Source of the DNA: Atractiella rhizophila
Lineage: Eukaryota
Direction of reading: 5' to 3'
DNA: 35,472 nucleotides
Assembly: GCA_021432655.1 (NCBI GenBank)
Contig: MU271651.1
Span: forward strand, 1 to 35,472
Part shown: positions 1 through 33,165 of the stretch, one piece after another
How the letters are laid out: every line of letters begins with the position of its first letter
Position numbering within the stretch: position 1 is the first letter of the stretch
The notes under the pieces: model-generated
Database searches by the model: none
Told to the model about the DNA's origin: nothing
The model's input: only the letters and a program-made list of their open reading frames with translations
Program-made: the position numbers and the translations under genes

Positions 1-483
1 ATGGATAGGAAACCTGAACTTTGTGAGCCTCGCGAGATTCACATGGCCACCTCAGCAGCGTCCGCGAATGGTAAGACTGCTTCATCTCGCCACTGAGGAC
101 TGCTACCTCTCGTGGTTCCGCCTTCTTTGGGTTTTGATGCTTTCTAGTTTGTGCAACTGATCGTTTCTATCCTGCCCATGAAGGCCACGACATTACTGTG
201 CTCTGAACCACAATGAGGGACATCATCCACTATTTCACTTTCTCGGGAAGGTACTTCATCTTTTCACCGCTGCCTCATACGTAGCAGTCGAGTCGCAAGC
301 TGCCTGTTCAGTCACGTTCAGTACCCTGATACCCTGACGTGGTCTGGCCTCTTCGAGAGGCACTGTCTTGCATATGCAGTGATTTCCAGGGATTTTTCCA
401 GATTTCAGAGCTCCCGCCACCAAGTCACTCCGCAGCTGGCACGCAGTCACCGCAGGCATGACTCTTGCTCCCATTCTCCTGCC

Positions 484-492
484 TTTATAAAG
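484..492 (+). promoter_or_regulatory. Putative TATA box of PB1 copy A
   Basis: TTTATAAAG lies ~65 nt upstream of the ATG. It is conserved as TTTATAAG at the same position in copy B (~22859-22866, minus strand). Confidence 0.5.
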
Positions 493-552
493 GGTTGCTT
501 TGACGTCTTGGTCTTGCCACTCGAACGAGCAAAACGAACGATCAGCACCAAG

Positions 553-1388
553 ATGTCTCAAGTTTTTAAGCTCACACTAGGAGAAATTGTTAGGAAAGTG
601 GTGGTTCCCACTGAAGGAGGCATGAAGTGGGAGGCGATCGAGAATGCGGTCAAGGAGAGGTTTGGGATCGAAGACACGAAGAAGATCGGGCTGAGCTACG
701 TCGATGAGGATGGAGACGAAATCACGATGTGCGTACTCCCCTCCACCGTTATTTCCTCGTATGTGGCGAAAGACGATATTGACAATCACTTCTATAATAA
801 CAGCTCGTCGACTCAGGAACTCAACGACCTCGTACCTTTCCCGAAGCCAGCTAAGTTTAACGTCGTCGTCTTCACAGACATCGCGACTGGAGCCGTTCTT
901 CGCTCTCCTCCTATCGCGCCGCCTGCTTCGCTTCCCGCATCTGCGATGGGAGATTGGGTCATGGATGACGACTCTGTTACTCCTGCTTCCACAAGAGAAG
1001 ATAAGGGGAAATCTCGCGCACCATCTTCTCCTTCCGTCCACTCTCGTGATGGAACGGCGACGCCTAGTGGAAGTAACAATGGCGGAAGGAAGGCTTTGAG
1101 GAGTATCTTGGAGGAGGTTCTTGGCAACCCAGCGTTCAAGCAGGTTGGAGAGAACATCGGTCTGAAAGGAGGGAAGGAGGAGATGGCTTCTACCGTGGAA
1201 GGGTATCTCGATAGGTTCGGTTGGGCGGATTTCGTGGACAACATCGTGGGTGCCAAACATCCGAACATGCAGGTCAACGTCGACATCGGTGATCCGGAAG
1301 ATGCGCCGCTCCCTCAAGCTAGATCACATCGCAGAGAAGGAAGGAGGGGAAGGAGAGGAGAGAGGCATTCTCATCCCGCTCCACCACC
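553..1388 (+). CDS. PB1-domain protein, copy A (3' end lost in the assembly gap)
   Basis: ATG at 553 (MSQVFKLTLGEIVRKV). Removing the 75-nt intron 729-803 (GTGCGT...AACAG) gives IGLSYVDEDGDEITISSTQEL, the acidic OPCA motif of PB1 domains, and the N-terminal Lys typical of PB1 is present. The frame stays open into the N run. It is a near-identical paralog of 21365-22798(-). Confidence 0.85.
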
Positions 1389-2224
1389 NNNNNNNNNNNN
1401 NNNNNNNNNNNNNNNNNNNNNNNNNNNNNNNNNNNNNNNNNNNNNNNNNNNNNNNNNNNNNNNNNNNNNNNNNNNNNNNNNNNNNNNNNNNNNNNNNNNN
1501 NNNNNNNNNNNNNNNNNNNNNNNNNNNNNNNNNNNNNNNNNNNNNNNNNNNNNNNNNNNNNNNNNNNNNNNNNNNNNNNNNNNNNNNNNNNNNNNNNNNN
1601 NNNNNNNNNNNNNNNNNNNNNNNNNNNNNNNNNNNNNNNNNNNNNNNNNNNNNNNNNNNNNNNNNNNNNNNNNNNNNNNNNNNNNNNNNNNNNNNNNNNN
1701 NNNNNNNNNNNNNNNNNNNNNNNNNNNNNNNNNNNNNNNNNNNNNNNNNNNNNNNNNNNNNNNNNNNNNNNNNNNNNNNNNNNNNNNNNNNNNNNNNNNN
1801 NNNNNNNNNNNNNNNNNNNNNNNNNNNNNNNNNNNNNNNNNNNNNNNNNNNNNNNNNNNNNNNNNNNNNNNNNNNNNNNNNNNNNNNNNNNNNNNNNNNN
1901 NNNNNNNNNNNNNNNNNNNNNNNNNNNNNNNNNNNNNNNNNNNNNNNNNNNNNNNNNNNNNNNNNNNNNNNNNNNNNNNNNNNNNNNNNNNNNNNNNNNN
2001 NNNNNNNNNNNNNNNNNNNNNNNNNNNNNNNNNNNNNNNNNNNNNNNNNNNNNNNNNNNNNNNNNNNNNNNNNNNNNNNNNNNNNNNNNNNNNNNNNNNN
2101 NNNNNNNNNNNNNNNNNNNNNNNNNNNNNNNNNNNNNNNNNNNNNNNNNNNNNNNNNNNNNNNNNNNNNNNNNNNNNNNNNNNNNNNNNNNNNNNNNNNN
2201 NNNNNNNNNNNNNNNNNNNNNNNN
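1389..2224. other. Assembly gap (836 N)
   Basis: Run of N. It begins where copy B has its Pro-rich tandem repeats. Confidence 1.
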
Positions 2225-2730
2225 TCAACTTACAGTATCTTTCTCCTTCGATGGCAAAGTTGACATCAGCTCGATCATTTACACTTTTTTCAACTTTTGT
2301 CATTGCAGAGCAGTTGCAGGGAATAGCAGAATAGAGACGCAGCTACAGTTCAGGGTCTAGGTGGGAGTCAGGTTGAAGGAGATGAGAACGCGCCACAATT
2401 TTTCATAGATATACAAAGAACACACCGTGCGTAACCCCACATACCGGATATTGGGAAGTGTTGGATGACGATGTCCCATGAGTTGCCATCAGAATCATTC
2501 GTTATGATATGCTGAGCTGGAGGACCTATTCTCGCCATGTCCCCCGAATTTGATCTGGTTTGCATCTTGCGTGTTACACGACCCTATGTATCATCTATGC
2601 TTGTACAAGATTCTTCGTCAAAACGTGTAATTTGTACAACAGAGGGCAACTCGCATCGAATACTGACCCTCGTGCCAACCTTTCTCCTTTGAACGCCGAA
2701 CGGGGTCTATACTGACAAGTCTTTCACTAG

Positions 2731-21364: not shown

Positions 21365-22798
21365 TCAGTCGCTCTCGGAACTGGAAGAGCTGGTGGTGAC
21401 ATCTTCCCCCCTCTTCGCCCTCTCTTCCCTCTGCCTCCTCCTTTCCTTGCGTTGGTTCTTCCTAAATCTCTTTTCTGCTCTCCTTGCCTCCCTTTCCATC
21501 CTTCTCCCCTCTCGCTCAGCCTCCCTCGCCAATCGCCTCGCTTCCCTCTCAGCATCAGCTGAAAACCTTCTTGCCTCCCTCTCGACCTCGTTCGCAAGCC
21601 TCTTTGCTTCCTTCTCAGCCTGTCGCGCATAATCGTGAAAGTCGTGTCCGCGCCAATGTGTGTGGTAAGGACCAAAGCAGCCCCTCCTTCCATGTCCATA
21701 GCCGCCTCGACCGGTATGTGGAAAGCTGAAGTTTCGTCGGTTGGGATGGATATCCCCCGGCGGAGAAGCGACGAATCCTTGCATAGGAGGCATTCCTGGC
21801 ATGGGTGGAATAGGGGGCATTCCTGGCATGGGTGGCACAGGAGGCATTCCCGGCATCGGAGGCACAGGAGGCACTGGCGGGGTAGGGAATCCCCTTGGCG
21901 GCGAATGAGCGTTGGGAGAACGCTCAAACCCATCAGGCGAGAGTTGAGGGAACGGGGGAAATGGGGGGAATGGTGGTGGAACTGGGTGAGCACGCTTTCT
22001 CTTCCTTCCTTCTTCTCCACCACGAGATCCAGATCGAGAAAGCAGAGTATCTTTCGCGCCACCAAAGTCGACATCGACTTGTACGTTCGGGTGTTTGCCA
22101 CCCACGATGTTGTCCACGAAATCCGCCCAACCGAACCTCTCCAGATACCCTTCCACAGTAGAAGCCATCTCCTCTTTCCCTCCTTTCAGACCGATGTTGT
22201 CTCCAACCTGCTTGAACGCTGGGTTGCCAAGAACCTCCTCCAAGATACTCCTCAAAGCCTTCCTTCCGCCATTGTTACTTCCACTAGGCGTCGCCGTTCC
22301 ATCCCGAGAGTGGACGGAAGGAGAAGATGGTGCACGAGACTTTCCTTTGTCTTCTTTCGCGGAAGCAGGAGTGACGGAGTCGTCGTCCATGACCCAATCT
22401 CCCATCACAGATGCGGGAAGCGAAGCAGGAGGTGCGATAGGGGGAGAGCGAAGAACGGCTCCAGTCGCGATGTCTGTAAAGACGACGACGTTAAACTTAG
22501 CTGGCTTCGGGAAAGGTACGAGGTCGTTGAGTTCCTGAGTCGACGAGCTGTTATCATAGAAATGATTGTCAATATCGTCATTCGCCACATATGAGGAAAT
22601 GACGGTGGAGGGGAGTACGCACATCGTGATTTCGTCCCCATCCTCATCGACGTAGCTCAGCCCGATCTTCTTCGTGTCTTCGATCCCAAACCTCTCCTTG
22701 ACCGCCTTCTCGATCGCCTCCCACTTCATGCCTCCTTCCGCGGGAACCACCACTTTCCTAACAATTTCTCCCAGTGTGAACTTAAATGTTTGAGACAT
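21365..22798 (-). CDS. PB1-domain protein, copy B (PB1, then Pro-rich repeats, then a charged helical tail)
   Basis: ATG at 22798; 75-nt intron 22622-22548; OPCA motif YVDEDGDEITISS; PPVPPMPGM repeats; E/R/A-rich C-terminus; TGA ending at 21365. Confidence 0.88.
   Translation of the reverse strand: MSQTFKFTLGEIVRKVVVPAEGGMKWEAIEKAVKERFGIEDTKKIGLSYVDEDGDEITMCVLPSTVISSYVANDDIDNHFYDNSSSTQELNDLVPFPKPAKFNVVVFTDIATGAVLRSPPIAPPASLPASVMGDWVMDDDSVTPASAKEDKGKSRAPSSPSVHSRDGTATPSGSNNGGRKALRSILEEVLGNPAFKQVGDNIGLKGGKEEMASTVEGYLERFGWADFVDNIVGGKHPNVQVDVDFGGAKDTLLSRSGSRGGEEGRKRKRAHPVPPPFPPFPPFPQLSPDGFERSPNAHSPPRGFPTPPVPPVPPMPGMPPVPPMPGMPPIPPMPGMPPMQGFVASPPGDIHPNRRNFSFPHTGRGGYGHGRRGCFGPYHTHWRGHDFHDYARQAEKEAKRLANEVEREARRFSADAEREARRLAREAEREGRRMEREARRAEKRFRKNQRKERRRQREERAKRGEDVTTSSSSSESD
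21781..21880 (-). repeat. Coding minisatellite, ~27-nt unit (PPxPPMPGM)
   Basis: GGCATTCCTGGCATGGGTGG-like units recur at 27-nt spacing, about 3.5 copies. Confidence 0.85.
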
Positions 22799-23327
22799 CT
22801 TGATGCTGATCCTTCGTTTTGCTCGTTCGAGTGGCAAGACCAAAACGTCAAAGCAACCCTTATAAAGGCAGGAGAATGGGAGCAAGAGTCATGCACTGCG
22901 GTGACCAGACATGCTGCGGGGAGGAACTTGGTGGCGTCGTTCCTTTTGAACAGCATTTGAAAAATTGCAGCCTGGTGCACAACAGCACCTCCTGACAAGG
23001 ACAAACAGGCCAGTTGTCAGGTTGGGCAGTGGCCTCAGATTGGAGATCTACGATAGCGTGGAGAAGGCAAAGTAGTCACCCACGACGTCCAATTTGTGAA
23101 TTTCCACAGAATGTGAAACACGGAAGACATCCTTCTCCTGGTTAAGAGTGCAGCAATATCATGGACAGGAGGTATTGGCAGCTGCGCAAACGGGAAGTGA
23201 AAGGCGAAGGCGGAACCACCGGAGGTAGCAGTCCTCAATGCGAGATGAGACAGCCGTACTAGTTCACAGATGCTGAAGCTGCCTGGTAAATTCCATGAAG
23301 ATCTCGAGCTTCAGAGTTTCTATTCAT
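21970..23327 (-). repeat. Inverted duplicate of window positions ~1-1388
   Basis: The reverse complement of ~22100-22893 is almost identical to ~458-1250. Weaker homology continues upstream: 23205-23250 matches 82-125 (TCATCTCGC..TGAGGACTGCTACCTC..GTGGTTCCGCCTTC). Confidence 0.95.
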
Positions 23328-24224
23328 GACGAAAGACTTTAGCAACGGTGACGCTGAACAAAGCATGCAACCGCTCCCATCTGGTCAATAGCCTTCGGAG
23401 TCACATTAATCGATCCGAAGTGCTCATTGCGATGAAGCGGTCTTCCCAGTTCATTGGCGCGCCTAAAAGTGCCTTGTGGATCCCACGAGGCTCAGAATTT
23501 TAGAGATTCCCGTTAAGTATGAAGAACAAGACGAGCCGCAGTCACTTCGAGTAAAATACGGACCTGCGTTGTTTCGCAGGGACGATCTCAAGGAGTCGTA
23601 GATTTGAAGTTAAGCTGGGCAATGGGGAATCGCTTCCGACTGTTTGGTAGAGAGAGAAGTCTTTATCGCCCCTGCGCACGTATCTAAGCAAATCTTTTGC
23701 ACATAGACTGGATTGCATTGGATTGGAGAATTGGCGACAATTGCAGAACGCACAGCGCGCTGCTCAGGTACCTACTGAATCCTGCAGAACAGTGTCCAAT
23801 AACTACCATCGTTCACATAACCCAGCACTTAGTCCATTGCATGAGTGTGGCCGTTCAGAAGCAGGAAAATGGCGTTGACGCCTGCAGTAGCTAGGTCAAG
23901 CGACATTTGAGGTGTTTTCTTTCCATTTCAATTCTAGAGCATCCAAGAAACACCAGATATCAAAGGAATAAGATCCCATAGGAACTGCTCGACTGCACCC
24001 TCGAGTTGTACAAAGGAACAGAAGGACGGACCGTTATGTAACATTGGTATGTCATCTAGCTTACCACCGTTTGTCTGCGACGCTTAATAAAGTAAACTTC
24101 GCTATGTCAGCTGTAGGATCGACACCGGAATCATCGTGAGAGTTTTCTTGGGTACCTTGGTTCAGGGTTGTTGTGGTCGTTCACAGTTCCTCCAACAACA
24201 GTTCTGAACAATCTCCAACGACCA

Positions 24225-25319
24225 ATGGTTAGACCAACTCACTTCATCTCACTTCCTCTGCACTCGAGCCATCTAACTACCCATTACACCGCTCTCACCC
24301 AGCGCTGGCTCAATTCCCCCTCAACGAGCCAAGCGAAAGGTTTCGATCCTACCCTGCTGGCAGAGGCACAACGACTACATCTCACGATCGGCGTGTTCGC
24401 ACTTACAAAGGAGAGAGAAGAGGGAAAACAATATCTTGGAGACGCTTTAAATGCATTAAAAGAGTTGGATGGCGGTGCTTTGAATGAATTTGTTGGGACG
24501 AAAGTGAAGCTAGGAAAGTTGGACACTTTCAGGAGGAAGGAATGTCATGTTCTGTTTGTGGAGCCTGAAAGCGAGGACGGCAGGCTGGCGAAACTCGCTG
24601 GTGAGCATTCTATACCTTTGAAGGAGCAGCGAAAGGGCACTCCGTTCGCGCATCCAGTGTCACCTCGTCTCATTTTGAGCGCGTCGTGGGATGTGCCTGA
24701 AAGTCTTGTCATCGGATACTTTTGCGAAGTATACGTCATATTCTCGTTCGAAACTCGATAAAACTCTATCAGTGGCGCGTCGAGATCAAACAAACATACT
24801 TAAACTTTTCTTCTATTGCTCCTGAATTGCTACCCTCCAGCAGACGAATTTCTCACAAATCTTTGTTCAGAGCGCCTACGCCATCATTTTCTTTCCCGCG
24901 GTTTCCAGTTCGCAGACGGTAATCGCCCGCTAACTGTTCGCTTTTTACCATCAACATTTCTTTGTCGATAACGTTAGTTTCAGTTGCATTTGACTGTCAT
25001 GAACACATCGTACCGCCGCACACCTCGTCCAGCAGGGAAGCCAGCCCGAAATCGAAACAAGAAGCGCCTGCCATTCGATCCTATTCCTTTCCTCCACCCT
25101 ACTCCAGATGCAACTGTGACTACCGACGTGTCGGACGATGTCAAAGCAGAGGGAATGGTCGTGGTGGATGGTAATGTCGGTGGACCTGGTGTGGATAGTG
25201 AGCTTGGAGAACACGTTATTGAGAGCGTGCAGATCTGTGCGATGGGGAGTAGAGATGAGCAAGGGCGATACATTGCCCTCGAGACAGTGAGCCTGAAGGA
25301 AATGAATGAACAGGCTTAA
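24225..25319 (+). CDS. AKAP7/ASCC1-like 2H phosphoesterase (2',5'-RNA-ligase-like fold)
   Basis: MVRPTHFISLPL, two HxT motifs (RLHLTIGV and LHLTVMNT), HVLFVEP, and C-terminal VQICAMGS...GRY. Introns at 24601-24870 and 24936-24983 give LAKLAERLRHHFLSRGF...RPLTLHLT. Confidence 0.85.
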
Positions 25320-25696
25320 TGCATACATCCTCACTAATTCATGATCAGACTAAACGTTGCCGCCACTTGATATCAATTTACTGTAAACGGACAATCAATT
25401 AATCATCATTGTGGTGTCATACCCTCGTTCTCGTTACACTCGTTATTCTCGTCTCGTCTCACACGACTCGCTCACCGTACATGGGAGATTACGGGGAAGA
25501 CCTGTTATTTACGGTACATTTGTGCCTACTTCAATCCACCACCTTCTCGGTTTTCTACCAGTGGGTTGTGCTATGGCCAAGTTCTGAGCAAAGATCTGGA
25601 GAACAACGCCGTAAGTTACAGCCTTGGATCCCACACGTGCACCTCTCTTCCCAGTGCTACGGTGAACTGACGCTGCCTATTAGCTTATTCCCTACC

Positions 25697-27142
25697 ATGA
25701 CAATTTTGAGCCAAATGCAATGTTTTTCGTTTCAATCGCTGCCTATCGAGCTTCAGACGGAAGTTGTCGATGAGCTTGCAGTGCTGGAGCCCGATCGCCA
25801 AACACTTATTTCTACGAGCCGAGTCAATCGCCGGCTCAGGAAGCTTTCTATCCGCGTCCTTTTCAAAAGTATTTATCTGTCTAATTCCCGATATTACCCA
25901 ACAAACAATCACAGATGGCAGGTTGATTTCTCGACGCCTCTATATGACCTTCCTCAGTCATACTTGTCCTACATTCATATTGTTCACATCAATCTGCATG
26001 AAGACATCTGTCTCGATGAGGATTCCAGATATCCTGTTGGTGACGATTCTGAGGGACGTCTCGCTCCTTTAATGCAATTAGTGGATCTAGTCATTTGCTT
26101 TCAAGATGTAACCACCCACTGCCATTCTCTTAAGGAGGTCTTTATTCATCTTAAGTTTAAGGAAGGGATCGATTCACATGGGACAGCGTCAGCTAACTAC
26201 CCGGGGCTTGTAACAACTAGCTTCAGCTCCCTTGTTGACCAAACCAAGTTTTGCGTCAATAAAATCCGACTTGGCTTTCATGTACACTTCAGTGATCCAG
26301 ATTTTGATTGGATGGAATCGCATGCGAGAATCGACTATGCACTCCGTAGCATGACCAGGCCAGACAGAATTACAACCATCGAATGTCATTCCGGATTCAT
26401 AACGGGTTTAGTTTTGCAATCGTTACTGTCATTGCCAGCGGTCAACCAACTTTCTTTGGGTACTTGCAGCATCCTGGGTCTCATGTCGCTGGCACAAACC
26501 AGCCTTCGTCATCTCAGCATTGATGCTCGATGCACCGACTTATGTTTTGGCCATCTTTCCGTGGATGCGGAGTGGGAGTGCGCTTTCAATCTTGTCAGAA
26601 CTTGTGCTGCAACTTTAGAAAGCGTGCACATACGCCACTACCTTGGACTTCGCGAAGGATTACATCGCGAGCACCCACCTGTCCAGTATCCTAATCTAAA
26701 ACGATTCCACATATGTTACATTCGGCCTGAGTCTCAGCGACAAGAGGAATGGTCTGCAGATGTTAAGGAATACCTACTTGATCAGTTGCGGCTCATAGTA
26801 GGTGAGTTTTACGTGTGCCCTTTGGAGGTTTTTGGATTTTCGGAAAGCTATTCGCTTGAAGCTCCCACTCCTGTAGAAGTTGGCATTCTACCTGTTGCGT
26901 CTGCGGAGCATGAGCAAGAATTCCAATTGCCAGTTGCCTCGAACCGTTCTGAAATCACTCCGGCTTTTGTTGCTTACTTCATTGCAAAAAAGAGGAAGGA
27001 AGGTTACCTCATGAATCTCAAACGAGTGGATTTTGGACGGTCTACTTTCGATTGCTTGACCAGAACAACGCAAGGAGCCATGTACTCAGGCAAATTGGCA
27101 AAACTGGGAATTGTGACCAGGAGCGGGTGTCGTGAGGAATAG
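25697..27142 (+). CDS. F-box-like protein, intronless
   Basis: FQSLPIELQTEVVDEL...TLISTSRVNRRLRKLSIRVLFKSIYL is a typical fungal F-box pattern. It is followed by degenerate LRR-like units (SLKEVFI, SLRHLSI, TLESVHI, NLKRFHI, NLKRVDF). Confidence 0.75.
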   Translation: MTILSQMQCFSFQSLPIELQTEVVDELAVLEPDRQTLISTSRVNRRLRKLSIRVLFKSIYLSNSRYYPTNNHRWQVDFSTPLYDLPQSYLSYIHIVHINLHEDICLDEDSRYPVGDDSEGRLAPLMQLVDLVICFQDVTTHCHSLKEVFIHLKFKEGIDSHGTASANYPGLVTTSFSSLVDQTKFCVNKIRLGFHVHFSDPDFDWMESHARIDYALRSMTRPDRITTIECHSGFITGLVLQSLLSLPAVNQLSLGTCSILGLMSLAQTSLRHLSIDARCTDLCFGHLSVDAEWECAFNLVRTCAATLESVHIRHYLGLREGLHREHPPVQYPNLKRFHICYIRPESQRQEEWSADVKEYLLDQLRLIVGEFYVCPLEVFGFSESYSLEAPTPVEVGILPVASAEHEQEFQLPVASNRSEITPAFVAYFIAKKRKEGYLMNLKRVDFGRSTFDCLTRTTQGAMYSGKLAKLGIVTRSGCREE

Positions 27143-27594: not shown

Positions 27595-27850
27595 CCCTTG
27601 GATTTGAAAGTTGTCCCATGGGGAAGGGCAGAAGTCTCGCATGATTATCCTTTCCTCCTCCTCTCGGCAAGCCATCTCTGCCTCCATAAAACGCCTCTCG
27701 CTCTTCTCGCATTTCCCTCCTCTGTTGTTCCTCTTCTCGTCTCCTCGGCTCCTCTAGTTCCCTCCTCCTTCTATGCTCCTCGTCTCGTTGCTCAGCTCGT
27801 CGCCCGCTCTTCTGTGTCCGTCCTCAACATTTCTGGATGTCGAGCAGCTC
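27595..27850 (-). pseudogene. Possible degenerate fragment of a coiled-coil gene
   Basis: The E/R-rich frame RRAEQRDEEHRRRRELEEPRRREEEQQREMREEREA continues as MEAEMACREEEERIIMRDF only after a frameshift in a T run (~27687-27690). There is an in-frame stop upstream. Confidence 0.3.
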
Positions 27851-28534
27851 CAGTAAGCCGAATAACGACTGGTGAGAAATGAGGCATGGTGCTAATTTAC
27901 GCCGCCTTGCGAACATTCATGGCATATCTGCTTTTGAACCTCCATGTCTGATTGGTAAACGGAGAATTGTGACGATAGAGAGACGAGGAGGGGAAGATAA
28001 ATGCCATTTTATATTTGCTGGTTGGCAGAGACGCTTTACAGAACGTGATTTGTTAGATCGTTTGCGAGGACGCCATAACTGGTTCGCAAACGCAAAAGCA
28101 AAGAAGGCAAGGTATCATTTGCGTCATTAATTCATGGACGCAGTATAAGTGTGTTTCCACGGGACCTCCGCAACAATGAAAGAGTGTAATCAACGGAAAC
28201 ACTTGCTCTCGACATCACGAGAGGCGCGAAAGAAAAGGAGCCAAGCCACACTTGATTTGGTTAAATCATTGTCTCACGTCTTTCGTTCTAGTCAATAACA
28301 TTGCCAAAGTCTTTACTAAAACGCCTCGCCCTGCCGCACGGCTTCATAAAATACAAAGTGACAGCATAAATACTGTAGTTGACTCTTGACTCCTGACACA
28401 GACGTTCTTTGAAAGAACCGTAAAGTTCGGAATTTTTCAAACTTTATTCAACTACACTACGAGCAGCTGGCGAATTCACACTTGCTGCTGAGGAACGCTG
28501 CCGAGACTACCCACTGAGAATTGTGCTACGGATT

Positions 28535-28972
28535 ATGTGGTTTAATGTTTTCACCCGCCCCGGTCGTGTCTTTCCTCTCTTCCTCACGACTGTTGGTGCG
28601 TCCATTTTCTTGTTTCAGTTTTCTTCTTCAGTCATTCTAACATTGCAAGGAACTAGTTGGGCTCACTTCTGGAGTTTAGTAAGTTGTTTTGCTTTTTAGC
28701 AATCGGTGCACAGAAAATTAACATGAGGGAACAGTATCTTTGATCCCATCTTCAAAGACATGAGAGACAGAGGATTTGAGGAGCGCCGAGAGCAGCTACT
28801 GCAGGCTCAAGCAGCGCAGAAGGAACAGTACGTTTCTTGTTCTAACTCGAACAAGTTAAAAGAGCACTGATTGATCACGTTTAGAAGTGCCGAAGTCACA
28901 ATTCCTGTCAACAAAAGCTCAAGTTCAAACGGGCAGAGCCTTGCAATAGATACTCCTGCTTCTACCAAATAA
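28535..28972 (+). CDS. PIGBOS1-like single-pass microprotein (87 aa)
   Basis: Exons 28535-28595, 28657-28678, 28735-28827 and 28885-28972 have canonical donors (GTGCGT, GTAAGT, GTACGT), YAG acceptors and matching phases. Product: MWFNVFTRPGRVFPLFLTTVVGLTSGVYIFDPIFKDMRDRGFEERREQLLQAQAAQKEQSAEVTIPVNKSSSSNGQSLAIDTPASTK. Confidence 0.8.
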
Positions 28973-29191
28973 ACAACATACCCACCTGACTGAAAAGTGA
29001 GGTGGATGTGGAGAAGCGGTAATGGCACCAACTGCAAGGGGCAAGATGGATGACGACGGACACCGTCGAATGCCTTCCAGTCTCAACGCACGGTTCCCAA
29101 GACTTTCCGAATTAAGATGAGTAAATATCCTGAACTACGTGCTCTTTCAAAGCAATATACATTTTGGCTCCCCGCCCCCAATGCCTCTAGG

Positions 29192-30731
29192 TTAATTGGC
29201 GAGGTCCCTCCTGCTATTCCACTGCCGAGCCTCCCTTCCACCAAGTCCTGCCTGACTCCGCGCCCCTCCCGCGTTAGCTATAGGCCGCTCCTGCCTTCCT
29301 TCCCTCCTGATCTTCCGCTCCTTCTCATCCTTTGAGAGTTTTGGTTGTGAGCGCGTTTTCGATCTAGTCTTGAATGGAGTGGACATTGGTTTTTGGCCGG
29401 GGAAGAGGGGAGTCCCAGTGACTGGACGCTGGTAGCCTTGAACCTTCAGTAGTTGCTAATTCCCACCACAATGTTTAGCTATATTCTGCGGAAGCAGGCG
29501 ACAGAAGACAAGGATGGAGAACATACCGGAAATTGATCAGGGTCTCGCTTCTCGTCTCTATCCCAACCAAACTTCTTTTGTTCCTCATCCGTCTTCAACA
29601 TCCTCAAACTATGTCTCCATGTCCGCACAAGAAAAGCAAGAGCAAGCTCGCCGTAGGAGTACGGTTTTGACAGAGGTTGTTTTCTAGCATCCGTTGGATC
29701 CGTAATCACTTCCTTCATCATCGTTTCCATCGAAACAACCAGTGGTTTCTTCTCGAACTCGACTTTTGGCACCTCTTTCGTTTTCGGGATGAAGCGAAAG
29801 ACCCTGATGAGGTGTTGTCGCGTCTCCTCAGAGATAGCACCCTGGTGGGCCTTTCCCAACCGAGTTAACCTAGGCTCAGCCATTAACCTCTCCACAAGTG
29901 CGACCGCCTCTTTCTCCCCAAACTCTCCCTTTTCGACCCTCCACAGAAAACCGGTGATCTCTCTCAACTCTTCCTCCCGTCTATCATCCTTCGGATTCCC
30001 TGCCCATCCGTATATCATTTCGCGAGCGATGAGACCGGCGACCTTCTCCCGTTTCAAGTCTTTGGGATTGTCTACCAGTTCAAGAATGGCTCGCGGGGAC
30101 TGGTCGTGATGGTGTGGAGGTAAGCGATGAAGGCGCGTGTAGCCAGCTTTCCGAAGGGAGTAGCGGTGAAGGAGTGTTCTGAAAACTTGTGGGAGTGTTG
30201 CTTCGTGAGCCTGTTCCGGTGCGAAAGGTCAACATAAACTCACTCCTGTACCGAAAACTAGCTAGTAATGCTTTGCGAATATAAACGACCAAAAGCAGAG
30301 CCAATGGGCACTTGCATTTTGTCTGCAGTCGTAACAGCTTCAACGCTGTAAAACGTAAGCTCGTAGAGAAAGGCTTCACCACAATCACAAGCAACGTTTC
30401 TGCCATATTAACCTCGTTCGCATGAGGTTACTAGCATCATGCAGACCACTTCGAAAGCACATAATGATAGAGGAAGCCAACACGTCCTCCAAACCTCAAC
30501 CCAATGAAATGTATAAAGAAAGCTCACATAAGTCCATTGAGCAACTTTAACATGCTTTCCCCGTTTTGCTGCAGTCAGAACCTTCTCCACCAGAGGCTGT
30601 ACCTGCTTTGCCTTTGCTACAGTGGTCGAAATTTGGTCGTGCATAATGAGGGAAGAAATCATGTTCCGAAATAGCTGTATTCGAGCTGCTGTTGGACGAC
30701 CAAGTGAGGAGAATGCTACGCGATGTCGCAT
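29192..30731 (-). CDS. MRPL8: Mitochondrial ribosomal protein bL17m with a long C-terminal extension
   Basis: MRHRVAFSSLGRPTAARIQLFRNMISSLIMHDQISTTVAKAK...; after intron 30527-30211 it reads RYSLRKAGYTRLHRL...AILELVD, the L17 signature. A second intron starts at 29526 (acceptor ambiguous), and the TAA ends at 29192. Confidence 0.92.
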
Positions 30732-30923
30732 GGTGCTGTTACAAGGCAGAAGGGTTACTGTGTAGCTGCAATGGAGAATGGAATGTGTGCTAGGGGGATG
30801 AACAAAAATCTTGAGGGGCTCAAGATAAAGCCCGAACATTCCACACTGACGGCAAGGATACTCCGCAGCACAGTTAGGTTTGTGCAGGTCATACCGTGGA
30901 ACTGGTTTAGTAGCCTGAGCAAC
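30732..30923. promoter_or_regulatory. Compact putative bidirectional promoter
   Basis: Only 192 bp separate the divergent ATGs at 30731(-) and 30924(+). Confidence 0.5.
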
Positions 30924-33165
30924 ATGGTCACTACAACCCGTCAAGTCCACGTATTTGCGCCACAAACAACGCCTTCAGCCACGTCTAATGCACTCAATGA
31001 TCTTTTGAGATCCGGAGGTCCAGGAACCATCGTTCACTTGCTGCCCAACACGACGTATCATTTGCACTCCCCCATTCGGTTCTTCCATCCTAATCAAGAA
31101 TTATCTACATTCTCCTATCCGAGAGAGCCCGAGTCTTACGCGCGCATAGTTGTCGCTGGACCCAACCAATCCGTTGCTCTTGATGTGACCGGCCAGGATT
31201 GTGCTGTTCTGCGCAACTTGTACATCGAAGGAAATCGAGAGGAGCTGGGATGGATCGAAGGTGGTGGAGCCCTCGTCATTGTTGGAGGTAATGGTGTGAA
31301 GGAACCTACCGTGCAGGATTGCATCTTGAGGGATCCAAGAGGCTGGAGTTGCCTCCATGCCGTCGATTGGTGCGTTGGAGCCAAGATCTTAAACAATCTA
31401 GTCGGACCGGCTGGTCAACCTGCGCCGAACGGTCCATGGGCTGATGGACTGAGCTTGGCTTGCAAGGATGGGCTTGTAGTTGGTAACACTGTTCGTTCCT
31501 TTTTGTCTTTGGAACCTGAGTTAAAGGTCCATGGGCTGATGGACTGAGCTTGGCTTGCAAGGATGGGCTTGTAGTTGGTAATACTGTTCGTTCCTTCCTT
31601 TTCTTTTGAACCTGAGTTGAAGTTGCGTACGCAGATCATCGATGCTACCGATGGAGGAATAGTGGTCTTCTGTGCGCCAGGGACAATCGTGGCTTCCAAC
31701 ACTGTGGTCTCAAGAACACGGACTCTTCTAGGAGGTATCAACCTGTTAGTTATTCCGTATCCTTTTTGAGACTTGCTGGACGGACGAGCCGAGCAAAGCG
31801 TAGATCCGTTTCCTTTTGAGGCCGACTACACAAATACACGGGTTCTCAACAATCGGATAATCACAGAGACATCAGAAGGGTATATCAAACTCGGTATAGG
31901 GTTTGTATCTCCTACCCAATACTCTGACCTCTCATGCTGTTAGTCCAGGATTGGGGAGACGTGTTGGGGAGACAGCCACAATACTCTCAACTACGGAGGC
32001 ACTGTAAGCGGCAACATAATTGGGCCAGGTCTTCCAGCTTGTACATCAGGCAGCTTGATCTCATTAGTTTCATTTATAGGGAAGTTCGGCTATGGAATTG
32101 CACTCGCTGGATGCCGCGATTTCACAGTTCTCCACAACACCATCAACCAGAACACAACTTTCTGCGGCGATACGGCAGCTCGTCCTACGAACTGCCCACC
32201 TGTTCCTTTTCTCAAAACATGGGATCGTGATTGGGCTTTGGGAGAGTTCCAGCCGGAATTTGTCGAGGGAGAAGTAGGATATTTGATCGGGATCGAGAAG
32301 GGGTTCAGCAGGAGTCTCCGATTCCCCGTATGTCGCCTCTCTTGTTGTTTCGTTGAAGACTAAATCACGTCTAGAATAATTCGCTTCCTCCAGAGGTGAG
32401 AGTTCAAGGCGGTTGGCTCGGAATCGAAGATGGGGAGTTGAAACTCGTCGATCTTTCCCCTGATGGGAAGAGCAATACCGTTTGGTCGACGCGTTCGGAA
32501 GGAAAAGTTCAGAATTGGCAGTTCAAAGGCGGCGTTCTGATTGCGCGCGATAAGGAAGGAGAAGCCGTTTGGGATTCGTGGAAGCATGTTTTTGGACGAA
32601 ACCCGACACCGGGACATGGAAGAGAGACCTTCACGATAGAGAAAGGGAGGCTGTTGATCAACGATGCCGCGCAAAATGTGATCTGGATGAATAGATACTG
32701 TGTGTGTTCGAGTCCTGAACACAATACACTGATAGCCGTGCAGTCTTTCCTCTGGGTTGGCGTTTGAATGCCGGGCAGTGGATTGCTCTTCCCTCCTCCA
32801 CGAGCTTAGTATCTCCCGAATCTGAAACACCACCGCTCTTACCTTCCCGTCGTGGCCCTATCTTCTTCTCTCTTCTCCCCAATGGTCACTTGGTACTCCA
32901 TTTCTCCGTCCATCCATTGCAACCTCGACGGGAGGAAGTTATTTGGACGTCACCCAATTGGAAGCAAGTCCAAGCGGAAGGAGAATGTTTCTGCTCCTTA
33001 CAAGGTGATGGAAATCTCGTCATCTACAAAGCTGGAGAAGCTGTGTGGGCTTCTGGGACGAACGGGGAAGGACATATTGGGAAAGTGGAATGCCTCGAGG
33101 TCGGCAGGGAAGGGATTATGCTTTCAGCCAAAGGTGGAGCGAGGTGGAAGAGCTGGGACAAGTAA
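30924..33165 (+). CDS. Right-handed beta-helix (pectin-lyase-like fold) protein fused to a bulb-type (GNA/B-type) lectin domain
   Basis: Beta-helix-type rungs GTIVHLLPNTTYHL, LRNLYIEGN, WADGLSLACKDGLVVGNTIIDATDGGIVVF, VASNTV and VLNNRI. The C-terminus has LQGDGNLVIYKAGEAVWASGT (QxDxNxVxY) plus degenerate subdomains. Multiple introns. Confidence 0.8.
31431..31621 (+). repeat. 95-bp tandem duplication spanning an exon end, a 5' splice site and intron sequence
   Basis: GGTCCATGGGCTGATGGACTGAGCTTGGCTTGCAAGGATGGGCTTGTAGTTGGTAAyACTGTTCGTTCCTT...GAACCTGAGTT starts at both 31431 and 31526. Confidence 0.97.

Follow-up and report, generated by a model that had tools for sequence, protein, structure and literature searches.

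A spliced four-exon microprotein gene in Atractiella rhizophila with a predicted PIGBOS1-like product

Whether fungi encode relatives of the human mitochondrial microprotein PIGBOS is a question raised by a short stretch of Atractiella rhizophila DNA. The 2019 paper on the human protein described PIGBOS as having neither paralogues nor homologues (PMC6814811). As far as the available text of that paper goes, human PIGBOS has 54 residues with a membrane segment at residues 7-29, and its coding sequence occupies one exon, according to a figure legend (PMC6814811). The protein is placed among N-terminally signal-anchored outer-membrane proteins; protease protection and split-GFP located its signal anchor in the mitochondrial outer membrane and its C-terminus in the cytosol (PMC6814811). 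Human PIGBOS self-associates, and its C-terminal region binds the ER protein CLCC1, an interaction for which residues 30-32 are needed and whose function is abolished by a triple-alanine change of those three residues (PMC6814811). In human cells PIGBOS1 also affects the unfolded protein response. Data on its partners conflict. While one account places PIGBOS with CLCC1 at ER contacts (PMC6814811), another reports that HIGD2A, which is orthologous to yeast Rcf1, came down with PIGBOS1-FLAG from human mitochondria, along with complex III and IV subunits and carriers (PMC8664129). Rcf1 is conserved in fungi (PMC8664129).

The window analysed here is a stretch of 35,472 nucleotides (contig MU271651.1 of assembly GCA_021432655.1, positions 1 to 35,472 of the forward strand). 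At 28535..28972 on the plus strand it holds a gene of four exons (61, 22, 93 and 88 nt) that join in phase across three GT..AG introns into a coding sequence of 264 nt, that is, 87 codons followed by TAA. The start ATG at 28535 has A at -3 and is the first in-frame ATG after the upstream stop, and a branch-like element (CTAAC, TTAAC or CTGAT) lies 15-20 nt 5' of the acceptor in each intron. The parts of the gene and its convergent neighbour are as follows, X1 and X4 being RNA runs and PF23670 a Pfam family.

28535..28595, plus strand: exon 1, with the start codon, the short basic N-terminus and the beginning of the hydrophobic segment, ending in phase 1; present in X1 RNA.
28596..28656, plus strand: intron 1, 61 nt, GTGCGT..TAG, with the branch-like element TTCTAAC; spliced out in an X1 RNA contig.
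28657..28678, plus strand: exon 2, a 22-nt micro-exon with the GxxxG stretch and the opening half of the core motif (..GLTSGV and two bases of the Tyr codon); present in X1 and X4 RNA.
28679..28734, plus strand: intron 2, 56 nt, GTAAGT..CAG, with the branch-like element TTAAC; spliced out in X1 and X4 contigs.
28735..28827, plus strand: exon 3, which completes the core motif with (Y)IFDPIF and encodes the charged helix; PF23670 is its sole Pfam match; present in X1 and X4 RNA.
28828..28884, plus strand: intron 3, 57 nt, GTACGT..TAG, with the branch-like element CTGAT; spliced out in an X4 contig.
28885..28972, plus strand: exon 4, with the Ser-rich, probably disordered C-terminal tail and TAA; RNA for the first 20 nt only.
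29192..30974, minus strand: gene for the mitochondrial ribosomal protein bL17m, a convergent neighbour outside the microprotein gene, with a PF01196 match and an RNA-joined intron.

Read without splicing, the ATG frame meets a stop after 54 codons and has just its first 20 residues in common with the real product, so that a plain ORF list passes over the gene. The remaining exons sit in stop-to-stop frames of 47 and 33 codons. ORF finders, and probably gene callers too, miss it because the frame is cut three times, including on both sides of the 22-nt exon.

Transcripts establish that this arrangement is used. Four runs, each with a small share of the window's sequence words in an index search, were mapped on 27600-31200, and two of them, X1 and X4, cover the microprotein gene. 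Both are metatranscriptome RNA libraries with the label 'root metagenome'; they come from two studies and represent a near-identical strain. The two studies have year and habitat in common, may be parts of a single campaign and are perhaps not independent. A 171-nt X1 contig consists of 28540-28594, 28656-28675, three letters that differ from 28676-28678 at one position, and then 28735-28827, so that exons 1, 2 and 3 are joined as predicted. Junction 1 falls at 28595/28657 when read as GT..AG, with a cut movable by one base, and is seen in this one contig. Junction 2 (28678/28735) is seen in two contigs, one from X1 (with T28676G) and one from X4 (with T28676G and T28735C). Support for junction 3 (28827/28885) comes from a single 20-nt overhang in one 166-nt X4 contig: past 28827 the contig agrees with exon 4, from 28885 onward, at 19 of 20 positions before adapter sequence follows. 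RNA depth is about 4, and the contigs carry neither strand nor transcript ends. As a positive control, X1 also has the 317-nt intron of the minus-strand neighbour bL17m (30210-30526) spliced out. Runs X2 and X3 cover 29141-29354 only, at the 3' end of bL17m and outside the microprotein gene.

Other than by splicing, a form without introns is hard to account for in an RNA library, and the microprotein gene is confirmed as real, spliced and expressed as RNA. The preliminary description of this locus had proposed the four-exon, three-intron, 87-residue in-phase model and had observed that the ORF track misses the gene. The model proved exactly right, with the joined form present in RNA and the three junctions it had put forward for checking found in one, two and one contigs, and the early stop of the unspliced frame bears out the second observation. 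The contigs also differ from the window at three coding sites. T28676G and T28735C, in the core of the product, are synonymous (Val27 and Tyr28), and a change in the tail is a replacement (S60N); this is the pattern that purifying selection on the core would give, three sites being few.

Elsewhere in the window are frames with matches to a eukaryotic aspartyl protease, to a class I methyltransferase, to PB1 domains and to an AKAP7-type 2',5' RNA ligase-like domain, and this content identifies the window as nuclear sequence from a eukaryote whose introns are short. On the minus strand, two ORFs match PF01196 (Ribosomal_L17) at profile positions 1-44 (47.2 bits) and 54-97 (31.5 bits), and the 317-nt bL17m intron, about five times longer than the surrounding introns of 56-72 nt, interrupts the Ribosomal_L17 domain, falling between its profile positions 44 and 54. 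The last bL17m exon (29455-29192, minus strand) is modelled in phase: the intron before it would run from a GTATGT donor at 29526 to a TTAG acceptor whose end is 29456, and the stop would lie at 29192-29194. It adds a basic, Lys/Arg/Gly-rich C-terminal extension that matches no Pfam family. If this modelled exon holds, bL17m lies tail-to-tail with the microprotein gene with 219 nt between the stops, as had been described from the sequence at the outset. The adjacency of the two genes is probably incidental.

Several further features of the window were recorded alongside. Two inverted paralogous genes, at 217-2334 (plus strand) and 21365-22888 (minus strand), lie about 20 kb apart; their frames are 88% identical over 294 aa and give weak PB1-domain matches (21.4 and 23.2 bits; cut-off 23.6). 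Over its first 2 kb the window is unusually AT-rich (GC 0.36) and has long open frames on both strands. The AKAP7-type 2',5' RNA ligase-like frame (24117-24761, plus strand, 50.3 bits) adjoins a 579-aa frame at 25403-27142 that matches no Pfam family. A long pyrimidine-rich (CT) tract at 27640-27830, some 700 nt 5' of the microprotein start, could belong to a promoter or leader or to an upstream gene. At 31431-31622 a 95-nt unit occurs in two tandem copies with 93% matches, inside or beside a plus-strand frame (30708-31547) that belongs to no Pfam family.

The product of the microprotein gene is predicted to be an 87-residue single-pass membrane protein. Residues 1-11 include two Arg and no acidic residue. 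In a Kyte-Doolittle scan the best-scoring 19 residues of the sole hydrophobic stretch are 12-30 (mean 1.5), flanked by Arg on the N-terminal side and by Lys/Arg on the C-terminal side. Such a combination of moderate hydrophobicity and flanking basic residues is described for signal-anchored outer-membrane proteins. Within the hydrophobic segment lies G22-x-x-x-G26, and the segment continues into SGVYIFDPIF, placing the core motif GVYIFxPIF at residues 26-34, at the C-terminal end of the membrane segment. Residues 34-60 carry six K/R and six D/E, and a Ser-rich tail follows. AlphaFold2, given the 31-aa exon 3 piece alone and without an alignment, predicted a helix over piece residues 4-30 (mean pLDDT 85), a result that agrees with a charged helix at this position, though as weak evidence. 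The layout is thus a basic N-terminus, a moderately hydrophobic helix at about 12-33, a charged helix at about 34-58 and a Ser-rich tail. The short basic N-terminus, single hydrophobic segment and charged helix noticed earlier from the sequence all reappear in this layout.

To which family might such a protein belong? PF23670, named PIGBOS1 and described as 'PIGBOS1-like', has 54 profile positions and a gathering cut-off of 27 bits. For exon 3 alone (31 aa) it is the only Pfam match at E up to 10, with 13.5 bits and E 0.08, below the cut-off. The alignment is collinear over profile positions 24-52 of 54, and the residues after the motif align to 30-52. Exon 1, the tail and the unspliced 54-aa frame gave no Pfam match at E up to 10, nor did the helix without the motif or the first 20 residues of exon 3. 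The 13.5 bits of exon 3 are no higher than what chance carriers of the full motif reach (best 14.4), and the exon 3 score alone makes PIGBOS1-like membership a lead, not proof.

Relatives were sought by degenerate back-translation of G-V-Y-I-F-x-P-I-F across metagenome contigs, which yielded 60 loci. Ranked by context, these comprised one candidate, L033, and 59 chance matches, which were rejected, being mostly long or broken frames without the family layout. Seven of the chance loci (L004, L024, L032, L037, L048, L049 and L060, on contigs Ga01539xx or Ga0154008) share one identical 33-aa frame; their contigs come from sibling samples, also siblings of the L033 sample, and the same organism's DNA recurs across samples. 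L033 lies on the 12.5-kb metagenome contig Ga0153976_1000614 and has three exons, introns of 61 and 57 nt and a 61-aa product. Its N-terminus is short and basic, its hydrophobic segment contains GxxxG, and an SGVYIFxPIF core and a short acidic stretch follow. It was found through the motif itself and is a single relative, not an unbiased sample. A Pfam scan of the five ORFs flanking L033 found no family, and a neighbourhood shared with bL17m was not seen there.

The 21-aa middle exon of L033 by itself matches PF23670 at 33.3 bits (E 5e-8, profile positions 17-34), above the cut-off of 27. The control set for this score consisted of the 34 distinct motif translations of at least 20 aa, the other 26 of the 60 loci being duplicates or shorter frames. 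Among the 33 motif-bearing translations other than L033, eight scored 10.4-14.4 bits and 25 had no match. The eight always align to profile positions 16-32, the motif falls within 20-30 in the controls, and it thus marks positions 21-29. Judged from these controls, the motif alone is worth about 12 bits and the flanks of L033 add about 20, and L033 is a true member of PF23670 because its flanks contribute that much beyond the motif. G-V-Y-I-F-x-P-(I/V)-F is probably the hallmark of the family, judging by the control profile coordinates and by the human protein.

How far the window product resembles L033 outside the motif was measured on motif-anchored flanks, 16 residues before the motif and 10 after it. 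L033 scored +18 upstream and -9 downstream, a total of +9, against a mean of -28.5 (sd 7.7) and a maximum of -9 for 47 control flanks. This gap indicates that, outside the motif as well, the membrane segments of the window product and of a bona fide member are related. A Smith-Waterman comparison of the two products gave a score of 66, which none of 5000 shuffles reached in either direction, a result that agrees with this but is inflated by the discovery of L033 through its motif; the anchored flank control was used instead. The exposed charged helix, on sequence comparison, is not conserved between the two proteins. Both products have the SGVYIFxPIF core and GxxxG, start with a short basic stretch and are alike in their membrane segments; both genes have short GT..AG introns and a phase-1 intron just 5' of the GxxxG stretch. 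L033 differs in that no intron interrupts its motif and its first intron sits one codon off with respect to the motif; its charged helix is much shorter and its tail unrelated.

Taken from the pieces and the controls, the full 87-aa product is estimated to score near or somewhat above the PF23670 cut-off. It has a core motif at the end of a membrane segment, an N-terminal position for that segment and a charged helical C-terminal region, the features expected of a member. Membership of the product in PF23670 is well supported, not formally closed, the estimate being drawn from pieces and not from a full-length score. The likeness to PIGBOS1 suggested in the preliminary description has gained support from three sides: exon 3 hits PF23670 and no other family, L033 passes the cut-off, and chance carriers of the motif do not.

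Further relatives were not found in broader collections. In a collection of 5.8 billion protein clusters, the 47-aa read-through of exon 3 retrieved four word-sharing candidates among proteins of 84-2000 aa, none of which scored, and no relative among proteins of 25-83 aa. No protein with three 5-residue words in common with the exon 3 translation was picked up in this collection. An alignment of the window piece with the L033 exon (A1) found no homologue in the protein collection. A whole-library profile search with a second alignment, A2, returned one match, a 507-aa protein hit six times by low-complexity helix, which was dismissed. The ESM Atlas gave no usable match to exon 3, and a PDB sequence search with A2 gave no match at E up to 10. 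The exon 3 queries hold only 31 true residues, which makes these null searches weak evidence of absence. The gene is probably unannotated, as the preliminary description supposed; the missing match in the protein collection fits this, with the annotation of this genome not known to be in that collection. A literature search for a fungal PIGBOS homologue, or for papers naming PF23670 or a PIGBOS homolog or ortholog, found none. In the available text of two examined papers that pair PIGBOS with yeast, PIGBOS is mentioned only as a human example, and the PIGBOS literature found deals, in its available text, with animal cells and tissues.

Set against human PIGBOS1 and the PF23670 profile, the window product is likewise a single-pass microprotein with a short N-terminal region, a core motif ending the membrane segment, GxxxG within that segment and a charged helical region directly after it. 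Its parts follow the order of human PIGBOS, shifted by five residues. The window product is longer, having 87 residues where the human protein has 54 and ending in about 29 additional Ser-rich residues, and its coding sequence is divided into four exons in a fungus-like genome, whereas that of human PIGBOS occupies one. Signal-anchored outer-membrane proteins of the Tom20 class offer a comparison of mechanism only, through a moderately hydrophobic N-terminal helix, basic flanks and a cytosolic remainder; unlike the window product they are much larger, with folded receptor domains, and have no sequence relation to it. Mitoregulin/MTLN and BRAWNIN, as portrayed in the available text on them, resemble the window product in size class, in having one membrane helix and in being often missed by annotation, but their family profiles are matched by none of the scanned pieces of the gene at E up to 10.

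The reading that best fits these observations, and that is considered likely, is a real spliced protein-coding micro-gene whose 87-residue product would belong to the PIGBOS1-like family PF23670 and act as an N-anchored mitochondrial membrane microprotein. By analogy with the human protein, a mitochondrial membrane is somewhat favoured as the place of the anchor, and, given such an anchor, the outer membrane would be preferred over the inner one. The helix would then serve as an N-terminal signal anchor, most likely in the outer membrane, with the N-terminus inward and the charged helix and tail facing the cytosol. The GxxxG face might let two copies pair. The exposed helix, beginning with the residues directly past the membrane segment, might bind a partner that belongs to an adjacent membrane or complex; such binding could tune organelle cross-talk.

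A family member might instead act in the inner membrane with supercomplex factors of the Rcf1/HIGD2A type and complexes III and IV, forming no bridge between outer membrane and ER. The copurification of HIGD2A, complex III and IV subunits and carriers with PIGBOS1-FLAG (PMC8664129), as given in the available text, speaks for such a role, as does the conservation of Rcf1 in fungi. That the membrane segment and not the exposed helix is best conserved between the window product and L033 would also fit an intramembrane contact. The protease protection and split-GFP results for human PIGBOS, which put the protein in the outer membrane with its C-terminus in the cytosol (PMC6814811), weigh the other way, and an inner-membrane role is unlikely, if far from negligible. 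A more sceptical account accepts a real small membrane protein and attributes its likeness to PIGBOS1 to chance or convergence in a membrane-edge motif, leaving the protein in no known family. The exon 3 score of 13.5 bits (E 0.08), inside the range of chance motif carriers, would suit this account, and the searches of the protein collection, the whole-library profile, the ESM Atlas and the structure database returned no relative. Yet a nine-residue motif would then have arisen by accident in the place that the profile gives it (positions 21-29). That place is the end of the only hydrophobic segment, some 25 residues into the protein; GxxxG stands before it, and the helix after it aligns as far as profile position 52. 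L033, with the same membrane segment, passes the PF23670 cut-off, and coincidence of this kind is judged very improbable.

The low depth of the RNA contigs leaves room for one further idea, that of a spliced but untranslated transcript with an accidental open frame. A frame with a family signature would then be restored by accident across three introns, of which two have lengths not divisible by three, both letter changes in the core would happen to be synonymous, and L033 would keep an equivalent frame at different intron positions, all of which renders this idea barely credible. The favoured reading remains a translated PIGBOS1-like microprotein, putatively anchored in a mitochondrial membrane.

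A bolder proposal extends this reading to the origin of the family. The PIGBOS1 family might be older than the split between animals and fungi, with an ancestral job as a mitochondrial anchor in contact with membrane-remodelling proteins of the Brl1/Brr6/CLCC1 class in the ER and nuclear envelope, and fungi might then hold a hidden, genetically tractable form of the human PIGBOS-CLCC1 axis. Such a contact is conceivable because CLCC1 shares a domain with Brl1 and Brr6, its yeast homologues, according to the available text of one source (PMC13061601). The proposal as a whole is quite unlikely and is offered as speculation.

The existence of a curated 'PIGBOS1-like' Pfam family already limits the value of the finding, and fungal members may be on record. 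With its 87 codons divided among four exons, the smallest just 22 nt long, the gene is nevertheless a clean case of a kind that annotation is prone to miss. PIGBOS had entered the literature in 2019 as a human microprotein that lacked homologues (PMC6814811). If the locus does express a fungal member, the origin of the family would be at least as old as the common ancestor of animals and fungi. The ancient parts would be the membrane segment with GxxxG and its GVYIFxPIF edge, and the exposed helix would be variable. Organisms with easy knock-outs and localisation would then become usable for studying a microprotein whose function is disputed.
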